A stretch of 64,000 nucleotides of DNA from Candidatus Altarchaeum sp. (GTDB lineage: Archaea; Altiarchaeota; Altiarchaeia; Altiarchaeales; Altiarchaeaceae), in the NCBI GenBank assembly GCA_018260615.1, contig JAGWDQ010000053.1, positions 10,898 to 74,897 on the forward strand, in the 5' to 3' direction. Positions 5,431 to 59,536 of this stretch are shown here, piece after piece. Both the position numbers and the translations under genes were made by a program. Position 1 is the stretch's first letter; the number at the start of each line of letters is the position of its first letter. Under the pieces are notes generated by a model that ran no database searches, was not told the DNA's origin, and was given only the letters and a program-made list of their open reading frames with translations.

Positions 5431-5920
5431 TTTTTTATCGTACAGGAAAGTTCGTTTTATTATCCTCACACCAAGACACAGTCACCTCGCTATTCACCTC
5501 GCTGTTGTTCGGAGATTTAAAAAAATCTGTTGATTTTTAAAATACTGAAAATCTGTAAGATTTTCAATCTTTAAAAATCTGTTGATTTTTAAATCACCTC
5601 ATTTCATTCGGAGATTTTCAAAACTCTCACCTCGCTGTTGCTCGGAGATTTTCAAAACTTCGCGTTTTGAAAATGCGATTTGAAAATGCTCGGAGATTTT
5701 CAAATCTCTCACCTCGCTCCTGCTCGGAGATTTTCAAAACTTCGCGTTTTGAAAATGCGTTTTGAAAATAAGTTCGCTTCGCTCTCATTTAAAAATGCTA
5801 CAAGCATTTTTAAAGATTGAAAACTTATAGTTTTCAGTATATTTTCAAAATCTTTGCGATTTTGAAAAAGACACAAAGGAGTTATATTCTGTAACTTGGT
5901 GACTTTGTGGCTTTGTGTGA
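5431..5920. repeat. Mosaic intergenic repeat: 33-bp motif plus CTCACAC...TGTGTGA palindrome with nested hairpin repeats
   Basis: Arms ctcacaccaagacac (5465) and ctttgtggctttgtgtga (ending 5920) enclose several cacctcgct..ctcggagattttcaaaa and actgaaaatc..gattttcaatctttaaaaatc units also seen elsewhere in the window. Confidence 0.85.
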
Positions 5921-13387: not shown

Positions 13388-13448
13388 CTCACACAAAGAC
13401 ACAGGGACACAAAGATAAGTCATCTGTGACTTTGTGGCTCTGTGTGAG
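13388..13448. repeat. Empty CTCACAC...GTGTGAG palindromic repeat
   Basis: ctcacacaaagacacagggacacaaag, short spacer, ctttgtggctctgtgtgag, directly after the leuS stop. Confidence 0.85.
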
Positions 13449-20560: not shown

Positions 20561-20616
20561 CTCACACGGAGACACGGAGACACAAAGGGGAAATACACTC
20601 TGTGACTTTGTGTGAG
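20561..20616. repeat. Empty CTCACAC...GTGTGAG palindromic repeat between convergent genes
   Basis: ctcacacggagacacggagacacaaag ... ctctgtgactttgtgtgag. Confidence 0.85.
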
Positions 20617-29855: not shown

Positions 29856-30062
29856 ACTCACACGAGACACAGTCACCTCACTTACACTCATTTTTCAAAC
29901 GATTTCGTTTGAAAAATCCACGAACAAAAGTGAGCGGACTTCGTTCATGTATTTTAAATTTTCTACAAATTTAAAATCGTTCGGAGATTTTCAAAATACT
30001 CTGTGGCTTTGTGTGATTTCAAAATCTTGCAGATTTTGAAATCTCCGAACGAAGTGAGGTGA
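29856..30062. repeat. Mosaic palindromic repeat upstream of tRNA-Ser
   Basis: ctcacacgagacacagtcacctcac ... ctctgtggctttgtgtga enclosing ttcggagattttcaaaa units. Confidence 0.75.
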
Positions 30063-38796: not shown

Positions 38797-39055
38797 CTCA
38801 CACAAAGTCACAAAGCCACCAGGTTACAAAATATAACTCCTCTGTGTCTCTGCGTCCTGGTGTGAGAGGACAATAAAATTAGAATACTACTCACACAAAG
38901 CCACAAAGCCACAGAGTATTTTAAAATCAAGAGATTTTAAAAGATTGAAAATCTCACAGATTTTCAGTATTTAAAAAATCTCACAGATTTTTTAAAGATT
39001 GAAATCTCAAAGTTTTCAGTATAACATCTTTTGTGTCTCTGTGTCTTGGTGTGAG
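38797..39055. repeat. Two tandem CTCACAC...GTGTGAG palindromes, the second with nested hairpin repeats
   Basis: Unit 1 at 38797-38866; unit 2 at 38890-39055 encloses aagattgaaaatctc..agattttcagtat units. Confidence 0.85.
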
Positions 39056-39117
39056 GAACTAATAAAAAACTTATACTTTATAGAATAGTAAAAAATAATA
39101 AAATATTCACACAAAGA

Positions 39118-39504
39118 ATGATGAATGAAAATGAAATTGGAAAAATTATAGTTAATGCAGCAGTTGAAATACATAAAGAATTTGGACCCGGACTACTTGA
39201 AACGGTTTATGAGGTCATGCTCGCGTATAAACTTGAAAAACAAGGATTATCAGTCAAGCGACAAGTATCCGTTCCGATAGAATATGAAGGAATGAAATTT
39301 GACGAAGCTTTCAGAGTGGATATTTTTGTTGAGAATAAGGTGCTCATTGAGTTAAAGTCAGTTGAAGTAGTCAATAAAGCACATAAGAAACAAGTTTTGA
39401 CTTATTTACGGTTGACAGGATGTAAGCTCGGATATCTGCTTAATTTTGGTGAGTTCTTGATGAAAGATGGAATATCAAGAATAATCAATGGAGAAATAAA
39501 TTAA
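39118..39504 (+). CDS. GxxExxY protein (PD-(D/E)xK nuclease superfamily)
   Basis: GPGLLETVY, FRVDIFVENKVLIELKSV, QVLTYL, GYLLNFG. Confidence 0.92.
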   Translation: MMNENEIGKIIVNAAVEIHKEFGPGLLETVYEVMLAYKLEKQGLSVKRQVSVPIEYEGMKFDEAFRVDIFVENKVLIELKSVEVVNKAHKKQVLTYLRLTGCKLGYLLNFGEFLMKDGISRIINGEIN

Positions 39505-39595
39505 ATATTTTTCACATCTTTGTGCCTTTGTGTCTCTGTGTGAGAATGTAATAAAACAAGAATCATAAAGTTTATAAAAAAATAAAAAACAAATT

Positions 39596-40680: not shown

Positions 40681-40825
40681 CTCACACATACTGAAACCTT
40701 CGGTTTCAATCTTTAAAAAACTACAAGTTTTTTAAAAAGCCACAAAGCCACAGAGCAACATTGCCCTTTGTGTCTCCTTGTCTTGGTGTGAGAGAACAAT
40801 AAAACGAACTTTCCTGTACGATAAA
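40681..40825. repeat. Mosaic palindromic repeat plus the 33-bp motif in reverse orientation
   Basis: ctcacac..atactgaaaccttcggtttcaatcttt..ccacaaagccacagag..tttgtgtctccttgtcttggtgtgag followed by aataaaacgaactttcctgtacgataaa. Confidence 0.8.
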
Positions 40826-40874
40826 TAAATTTTTGTCCGGGTCATTTGGCAATCAGCCCGGTAAAATCCGGGTT

Positions 40875-59461: not shown

Positions 59462-59536
59462 TTTTTATCGTACAGGAAAGTTCGTTTTATTATATACAAT
59501 TTAACTTTTAATATTAAATATTTACAATTTACTAAT

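Follow-up and report, generated by a model that had tools for sequence, protein, structure and literature searches.

The window, by which we mean the whole 64,000-nt stretch of Altiarchaeum DNA analysed here, contains an intact gene for a GxxExxY protein in the spacer between lysC and fni, framed by the two arms of an inverted repeat. On the left, TCACACAAAGA at 39107-39117 runs without a gap into the ATG of the gene at 39118. On the right, the stop codon (39502-39504) is followed by CTTTGTGCCTTTGTGTCTCTGTGTGAG at 39518-39544, which consists of three 8-nt units and carries GTGTGAG at its end. The gene-bearing element (39107-39543) measures 437 bp, and the arms of such cassettes are built from up to three 8-nt units each (NCACAAAG). 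The gene occupies the loop exactly, and its ATG touches the inner unit both in archaeal and in bacterial copies. Further elements with arms of the same type, some gene-less and some with other fillings, lie elsewhere in the window (Table 1). The original prediction had described one arm adjoining the ATG and a complementary arm past the stop, and these coordinates proved exact on recheck; the gene-less palindromes and the cargo-filled elements that it had assigned to the same family all carry cassette-type arms.

Table 1. The gene-bearing cassette, related elements and the second PF13366 gene of the genome (positions are those of the window unless a contig is named)
Feature	Position	Strand	Remarks
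Filled element, 455 bp	5465..5920	-	Cassette-type arms; nested non-coding repeat modules
Gene-less hairpin	13388..13448	.	Cassette-type arms
Gene-less hairpin, 54-56 bp	20561..20616	-	Cassette-type arms
Filled element	29856..30017	.	Left arm degenerate, right arm intact, non-coding filling
Gene-less hairpin, 70 bp	38797..38866	+	Arms as in cassette; 240 bp upstream of cassette
Element with cassette-type arms	38890..39055	+	Other repeat modules nested in loop, no ORF
Left arm of gene-bearing cassette	39107..39117	+	Single TCACACAAAG unit touching ATG
GxxExxY / PDDEXK_3 gene	39118..39504	+	128 aa, intact
Right arm of gene-bearing cassette	39518..39544	+	3 units, complementary to left-arm type
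Element downstream of fni	40681..40792	+	Cassette-type right arm, then AATAAAACGAACTTTCCTGTACGATAAAAAA flank module
Element cut by window and contig end	63768..64000	-	Left arm and filling
Second PF13366 gene of genome	C109:144-500		39% identical to window protein

The window protein matches PF13366 (E = 7e-41, 139.7 bits where the cut-off is 22, aligned over profile positions 2-117 of 117) and the corresponding TIGR04256 (1.6e-40, 138.1 bits, cut-off 35), and these are its only Pfam or NCBIfam matches. The GxxExxY motif reads G25-L-L-E28-T-V-Y31. In an alignment of 47 sequences, E28, D68, E78 and K80 are invariant, the last three being the predicted catalytic residues. The AF2 model (pLDDT 96.3) displays a restriction-endonuclease-like core, and its closest matches among solved structures are Cas4, Hjc, 3ijm and nuclease domains of restriction enzymes such as BpuSI. 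Against solved nucleases the model scores a Foldseek E of about 1e-3 and a VIA Z of 6-8.5, Z values that place the protein in the range of a shared fold only. Profile matches, catalytic residues and modelled fold agree with one another, and GxxExxY can be kept, as originally stated, among the proteins of the PD-(D/E)xK fold. Sequence searches, PDB included, returned no solved structure or characterised relative of the window protein, and PADLOC and PHROGs searches gave nothing but weak Cas4-like matches. Comparison of the window gene with bacterial homologs indicates that the protein is under strong purifying selection (dN/dS 0.08-0.12, with dS about 1-1.4). The function of PF13366 has been given as unknown (PMC3424549), and a 2012 superfamily survey entered the GxxExxY family as 'Unknown' and with 'multiple transfers'. 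The family is large, comprising 18,546 clusters at 50% identity (E <= 0.001).

Contamination of the MAG could be ruled out as the source of the cassette. The 74.9-kb contig that carries it has flanking genes 84-90% identical to those of congeners, the GC content of the cassette (34%) is close to that of the genome (33%), and arms like those of the cassette are found on many further contigs of the same assembly. Proteins 99-100% identical to the window protein exist on other contigs (P0002-P0004).

The closest homologs of the window protein cross the boundary between domains. Sequences 80-85% identical to it are found in Nitrospinota, Armatimonadota, Planctomycetota (anammox bacteria), Pseudomonadota, Deltaproteobacteria, Bacillota and Pacearchaeota. 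For comparison of the arms, 29 homolog loci were fetched from species genomes, and in these the homologs with 79-84% identity carry cassette-type arms at the same positions. Their gene starts read aaTCAC(A/G)CAAAG-ACACGAAG-CCGCAAAG-A followed directly by ATGATG, the first unit being of the TCACACAAAG type, and past the stop TAAAT is followed by CTTTGTGTCTTGGTGGCTTTGTGTGAGG. The left arm has three units in the bacterial relatives versus one in the window, and because the 79-84% homologs carry three there, the window copy looks like a bacterial-type cassette minus two left-arm units. Even the bases just outside the arms are alike between Brocadia cassettes and Altiarchaeum hairpins (AGAAG-A/T-A ... 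TCACAC, and GTGTGAGGAA). The right arm in the window agrees with the right arms of bacterial cassettes at 23 of 27 bases (85%), whereas fourfold-degenerate sites of the gene are 57% identical, and so the arm, too, is under constraint. Gene and arms are thereby shown to be a single unit of inheritance, which has passed horizontally between bacterial phyla and into this archaeon. With dS as high as about 1-1.4, the transfer was not very recent. A viral vector is unsupported, as the viral contigs searched for GxxExxY relatives held two distant ones only, and a metagenome scan for relatives found bacterial-type sequences and none from Altiarchaeum strains.

Framing by arms extends well beyond the closest homologs. 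With a score of at least 14 for the flanking inverted repeat as the criterion, 26 of the 41 distinct PF13366 genes in the fetched loci (63%) are framed, compared with 4 of 157 neighbouring ORFs (2.5%), and all four of these control ORFs are antisense or adjacent to cassettes. Inverted arms had been anticipated at GxxExxY genes of other genomes, and they are present at this frequency, with arms of the CACAAAG type at the closest homologs. More distant homologs keep the layout with different units (GCCAAG, CGCTAAG, CGCAGAG, CACGGAA, CACAGAT). PF13366 paralogs reach 13 per genome, each with its own arms, and in one Nitrospinota genome four paralogs have four distinct arm types. Among 32 cassettes, arm similarity rises from 0.27 below 45% protein identity to 0.74 at 75% or more, and the divergences of arm and protein are correlated with a Mantel r of 0.63, a value reached in 0 of 2000 permutations. 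Across these cassettes the arm sequence is shown to co-diverge with the protein sequence, a pattern that would follow equally from simple co-inheritance.

An unrelated gene might have come to lie next to a common intergenic repeat by chance, and the spacer is indeed repeat-rich, with four repeat elements within 2 kb around it. However, homologs in other phyla are flanked by the same arms, and the difference in framing between PF13366 genes and control ORFs would be left without a cause. In addition, the probability that arms in the right orientation fall by chance no farther than 15 nt from the start and 45 nt from the stop is about 2e-6. This estimate is based on a genome of 2.23 Mb with about 121 arm ends in each orientation and does not allow for clustering. 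Chance juxtaposition is therefore scarcely credible.

The second PF13366 gene of the genome carries arms of another type. They read TCACCGCAGAG-ACACAGAG-GACGCAGAG and CTCTGCGCCTCTGCGGTGA, i.e. the CACCGCAGAG type, and both are translated as extensions of the ORF. The closest fetched relative of this paralog (Planctomycetota, 67% identity) has arms of the CACCGCAGAG type as well, and one gene-less partner of such arms lies at C60:63488-63583. Elsewhere in the family, some PF13366 representatives (P0121, P0122, P0126, P0127 and others) are tandem two-domain proteins of about 260-295 aa, and many others have N-terminal extensions of 10-60 aa. The extensions probably derive from left arms that are translated, which is also the case at C109 (MNNITAETQRTQR...).

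Arms of the window type are abundant in this genome. Within the window, TCACACAAAG with at most one mismatch occurs 16 times versus 4.0 expected, and this count was reached in 0 of 100 shuffles. Genome-wide there are 242 TCACACNNAG ends, compared with 9-23 for scrambled controls, and the strict pattern TCACACNNAGNCACNNAG has 147 matches versus none for the reversed control. The 242 ends correspond to about 120 elements in the Altiarchaeum genome (G000). When the arms were paired, 75 clean elements resulted, whose lengths span 46-455 bp and peak at 54, 62 and 68 bp, while 92 ends stay unpaired, several of them near contig ends (e.g. contigs C2, C15 and C68). Only 9 of the 75 lie inside long open frames, though such frames make up 81% of the genome. 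The largest set of identical hairpin copies numbers four, and an Rfam search gave no family match.

The gene-less copies are oriented, usually with AAAAAATCAGAAGAATAC or AAAAAATGC on one side and a AATAAAACGAACTTTCCTGTACGATAAAAAA module on the other. The module is 31 nt long and has 97 copies genome-wide, some of which stand alone; in the window it is found at 40793-40830, and a stand-alone copy lies near 59487 (C53:70384). It marks the constant right-hand edge of most CACAAAG hairpins, and also that of a different hairpin type (…GCGAGGTTAG…). Elements may land preferentially at this module, or the module may act as a portable promoter or terminator. The GxxExxY cassette supplies a gene-bearing partner for one module of this Altiarchaeum hairpin mosaic. 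In Nitrospinota, gene-less hairpins are packed on both sides of a gene-bearing cassette (G041:C338:3400-4160; L020 / L052), as they are in the window. Such packing suggests local duplication, or preferential insertion beside existing copies.

In the long elements inspected, other than the GxxExxY cassette itself, the loops hold non-coding repeat modules. This unrelated cargo between cassette-type arms, together with hairpin families that are orphaned from any cognate gene (see below), is what one would expect if the gene were a passenger, that is, if foldback or MITE-like hairpins were moved by replication or repair in the host or by an unrelated transposase, and GxxExxY were cargo with no action on the arms, perhaps an addiction or defence module. 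Several observations speak against it. GxxExxY is the sole protein-coding cargo seen between such arms across phyla, the arms switch along with the protein clade, no Y1 transposase was found in the genome, and the fit of the gene in the loop is exact, the ATG adjoining the inner unit in archaea and bacteria. We consider it quite improbable that the gene is a mere passenger.

Relative to the congeners, the alignments identify both cassettes as insertions between housekeeping genes. The hairpin at 13388 is missing from the orthologous spacers of two congeners (G001 and G003), which are 33-36 bp long. The alignment breaks right after the upstream stop codon, and comparison with the congeners revealed neither a target-site duplication nor a clean excision scar at this site, where the downstream spacer aligns poorly. 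In the lysC-fni spacer, G001 has other repeats and G003 an extra gene of 1.3 kb, and the cassette is in neither; with its spacer occupied in both, the orthologous locus was rejected as a clean empty site. The extra gene of G003 (L012, G003:C217) encodes a secreted protein of about 400 aa rich in Asn/Thr repeats; in G001 a remnant of its 3' end alone is left, and in G000 repeats and the cassette have replaced it. The second cassette lies between fwdB and fwdA, a gap of 45-60 bp in all three congeners. In G000 this spacer exceeds 700 bp, since it contains a CACAAAG hairpin and further repeat modules besides the cassette (C109:102-538 (L001) and C75:1-260). These sequences also break the assembly at this point, and the C terminus of fwdB at the junction is unlike that of the congeners. 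A comparison of filled and empty sites between strains had been proposed, and in the congeners, in line with the prediction, the orthologous sites lack the 13388 hairpin and both cassettes.

The number of arms can be compared with the presence of the gene in several lineages. Altiarchaeum G000 combines its 147 strict arms with the gene, whereas its three congeners have 0, 5 and 1 strict arms and a PF13366 gene in none, and 37 other relatives from the class have 0-1. In Nitrospinota, 56 arms accompany an 84%-identical gene in G041, and arm counts are 0-2 in 58 of its 60 relatives. Among the Nitrospinota compared (n = 61), only two genomes exceed 10 arms, G041 and G055. In the latter, with 49 arms, the most similar PF13366 protein has 37% identity and carries other arms. 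Its gene-less hairpins with TCACACAAAG arms number about 25 (e.g. L127, L128 and L124:130-240), and it has four PF13366 paralogs, all of other arm types. These hairpins are either an orphan family or one whose cognate gene is unassembled.

In Planctomycetota (n = 81), at least 10 arms are present in 12 genomes, of which 8 have the cognate gene and 4 do not; with fewer than 10 arms the gene occurs in 18 of 69. The association has an odds ratio of 5.7 (Fisher p 0.015, Mann-Whitney p 4e-5), significance values that are overstated because of kinship and incomplete genomes. Many gene-bearing genomes have no arms beyond those of the gene itself. The original prediction supposed that repeat copy number would go with GxxExxY presence, and it was right in direction: arm counts rise with the cognate gene, but 5 of the 15 repeat-rich genomes, a third, have no such gene. 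On these counts arm number tracks gene presence clearly in direction, though imperfectly.

The arms might instead act at the level of RNA. Once transcribed, they would base-pair into a stem for processing or termination and so insulate the inserted ORF from the host operon, and the gene-less hairpins would be terminators or stabilisers. The intervening sequences of rRNA, which are cut by RNase III, provide a model for such a stem. Both cassettes do lie in operon or intergenic spacers. One strand folds better than the other in 31 of 33 oriented gene-less copies, with G-T-compatible mismatches numbering 79 versus 25, and the favoured strand continues into GCATTTTTT or a similar T-run that resembles a terminator. 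In the cassettes, wobble-compatible mismatches favour the sense strand, 51 versus 24. However, the cassette arms form imperfect stems, in which 122 of 197 mismatches are unpairable on either strand and 75 are wobble-compatible. In the gene-less copies the better-folding strand runs antisense to the cassette gene, the copies are related by descent so that their counts are not independent, and Rfam yielded no match. The co-variation of arm and protein would also be left unexplained. Because the wobble-compatible bias points to the sense strand in cassettes and to the antisense strand in gene-less copies, and because the copies are not independent, the mismatches do not permit a conclusion on DNA versus RNA; the one-strand folding bias of the gene-less hairpins may be inherited rather than selected. 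Overall, a device acting through RNA seems very unlikely.

We conclude that the best explanation for the locus is a nuclease-plus-arms cassette whose gene-less hairpins are served in trans, to which we assign a probability of roughly 0.6. As the genome comparisons show, about 120 gene-less hairpins carry arms of the type found with the clade of the window gene, and the congeners, in which PF13366 is missing, are nearly without them. Under the proposed mechanism, the segment 39107-39544 would be one copy of a compact cassette in which the nuclease recognises the repeated 8-nt units of the arms flanking its gene and cleaves the DNA there or close by, the substrate probably being folded or single-stranded. 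The gene-less hairpins would be non-autonomous derivatives that the single resident gene serves, spreads or maintains in trans, in the way that RAYT serves REPINs or Ssn recognises NTS repeats. Since a PD-(D/E)xK enzyme only hydrolyses DNA and is never covalently joined to it, new copies would have to arise through repair or replication by the host rather than through the reaction of a classical transposase.

This mechanism could be taken further. GxxExxY cassettes might constitute an undescribed class of autonomous selfish element, in which the arms are cut, host repair or replication copies them with or without the gene to intergenic sites, and an element that crossed between bacteria and archaea seeded the burst of about 120 hairpins. 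We regard this extended version as unlikely.

The proposed trans-acting cassette would have consequences for the family as a whole. Each PF13366 member is predicted to target its own flanking units, and because a specific DNA target is thereby predicted for each member, the function of the family becomes directly testable. The prediction also suggests that PF13366 is a rich natural source of small nucleases or binders whose specificities look programmable, as recently demonstrated for the unrelated Ssn family. The Altiarchaeum genome offers a convenient test bed, with one cognate gene and about 120 hairpins. The C109 paralog with its different arms allows a cross-specificity control, and the congeners are nearly without repeats, with no PF13366 gene found in them. 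A full-text literature search found no description of repeat-framed PF13366 genes.

The system with which the cassette was originally compared is REP/RAYT, in which palindromes surround the gene thought to spread them. The parallel holds for the layout. As in REP/REPIN-RAYT systems, there is usually a single gene copy between palindromes and many gene-less intergenic copies, with lineage-specific bursts and orphan repeat families lacking a gene, and the ratio of one gene copy to many gene-less palindromes recurs here, with one cognate gene and about 120 elements. It does not hold for the machinery. RAYTs are Y1 HUH transposases (PF01797) with mostly vertical inheritance (PMC3333891, PMC3733652, PMC5581495), and REP palindromes are headed by a conserved tetranucleotide, GTAG or CGTC (PMC3733652). 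No match to PF01797 was found in the 87%-complete genome, and the flanked gene is a PF13366 gene of a different fold. The arm ends are (C)TCACAC ... GTGTGA(G), with neither tetranucleotide at the head. Of three REP/RAYT features examined, the cassette thus lacks two, and since no Y1 transposase was found, membership in REP/RAYT was rejected. The cassette differs further in its multi-unit arms with TCAC...GTGA ends, and in being 80-85% identical across domains where RAYTs are mostly vertical.

IS-derived MITEs and foldback elements resemble the hairpins in being short, bounded by inverted repeats, intergenic, nested and mostly non-coding (PMC10969869). Unlike these, the cassette hairpins have no DDE or other known transposase as a parent; the sole coding parent seen is a 128-aa nuclease of predicted hydrolytic type. 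Nor was a target-site duplication visible at 13388, the one site with a usable congener alignment, albeit one with a poorly aligned downstream spacer. Minimal PD-(D/E)xK nucleases (Cas4, 4r5q and 4ic1; archaeal Hjc, 1gef and 2wiw; 3ijm) share the alpha-beta-beta-beta-alpha-beta core and the E...D...ExK catalytic layout with the GxxExxY protein. However, they are only 14-21% identical to it in sequence and have an unrelated gene context, and the Fe-S cluster module of Cas4 is missing from it.

Judged by analogy of layout, the closest published analogue is Ssn/NTS (SRM), closer than REP/RAYT. The Ssn proteins are GIY-YIG site-specific ssDNA nucleases of Neisseria and many other bacteria, which cut beside the repeat (Chenal et al. 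2025, PMC11893778). Of their homologs, 42% are flanked on both sides by their own hairpin repeat, 81% of repeat-rich genomes have an Ssn gene, and Ssn modulates transformation (PMC11893778). Both systems have a small single-domain nuclease gene with its own hairpin repeat on both sides, a repeat dispersed in tens to hundreds of copies whose variants track those of the nuclease, and an imperfect association of gene and repeat across genomes. Two-sided framing by a cognate dispersed hairpin, with variants that follow the nuclease, is thus found in the GxxExxY cassette as well.

This likeness raises the possibility that GxxExxY is a resident nuclease of the Ssn kind, one that targets dispersed hairpins for a host-level function (incoming DNA, recombination or repair) while the repeats spread by other means. 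The published system has the same layout, hundreds of copies, the gene in 81% of repeat-rich genomes and an effect on transformation, and such a role would also fit the presence of one cognate gene for about 120 hairpins and the strong purifying selection on the protein. On the other hand, insertion in operon spacers and cross-domain transfer together with the arms at 80-85% identity are more typical of a selfish unit, and up to 13 paralogs per genome, each with its own arms, are likewise at odds with a host function. A purely host-level role is in our estimation improbable, and we continue to favour a cassette whose nuclease serves the gene-less hairpins in trans.

The two systems also differ in their parts. 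The nuclease is of the GIY-YIG type (cd10448) in Ssn and of the PD-(D/E)xK type (PF13366) in the cassette. The Ssn repeat is a single short hairpin, whereas a cassette arm has up to three 8-nt units and the gene sits inside the foldback. Ssn comes from bacteria, whereas the GxxExxY cassette described here is from an archaeon and has relatives in the other domain. The activity of Ssn was demonstrated in vitro (PMC11893778), whereas that of GxxExxY is a prediction. The analogy is one of arrangement, in which two unrelated small nucleases are each enclosed by the dispersed hairpin repeat that they recognise, in the case of Ssn, or are predicted to recognise, in that of GxxExxY.
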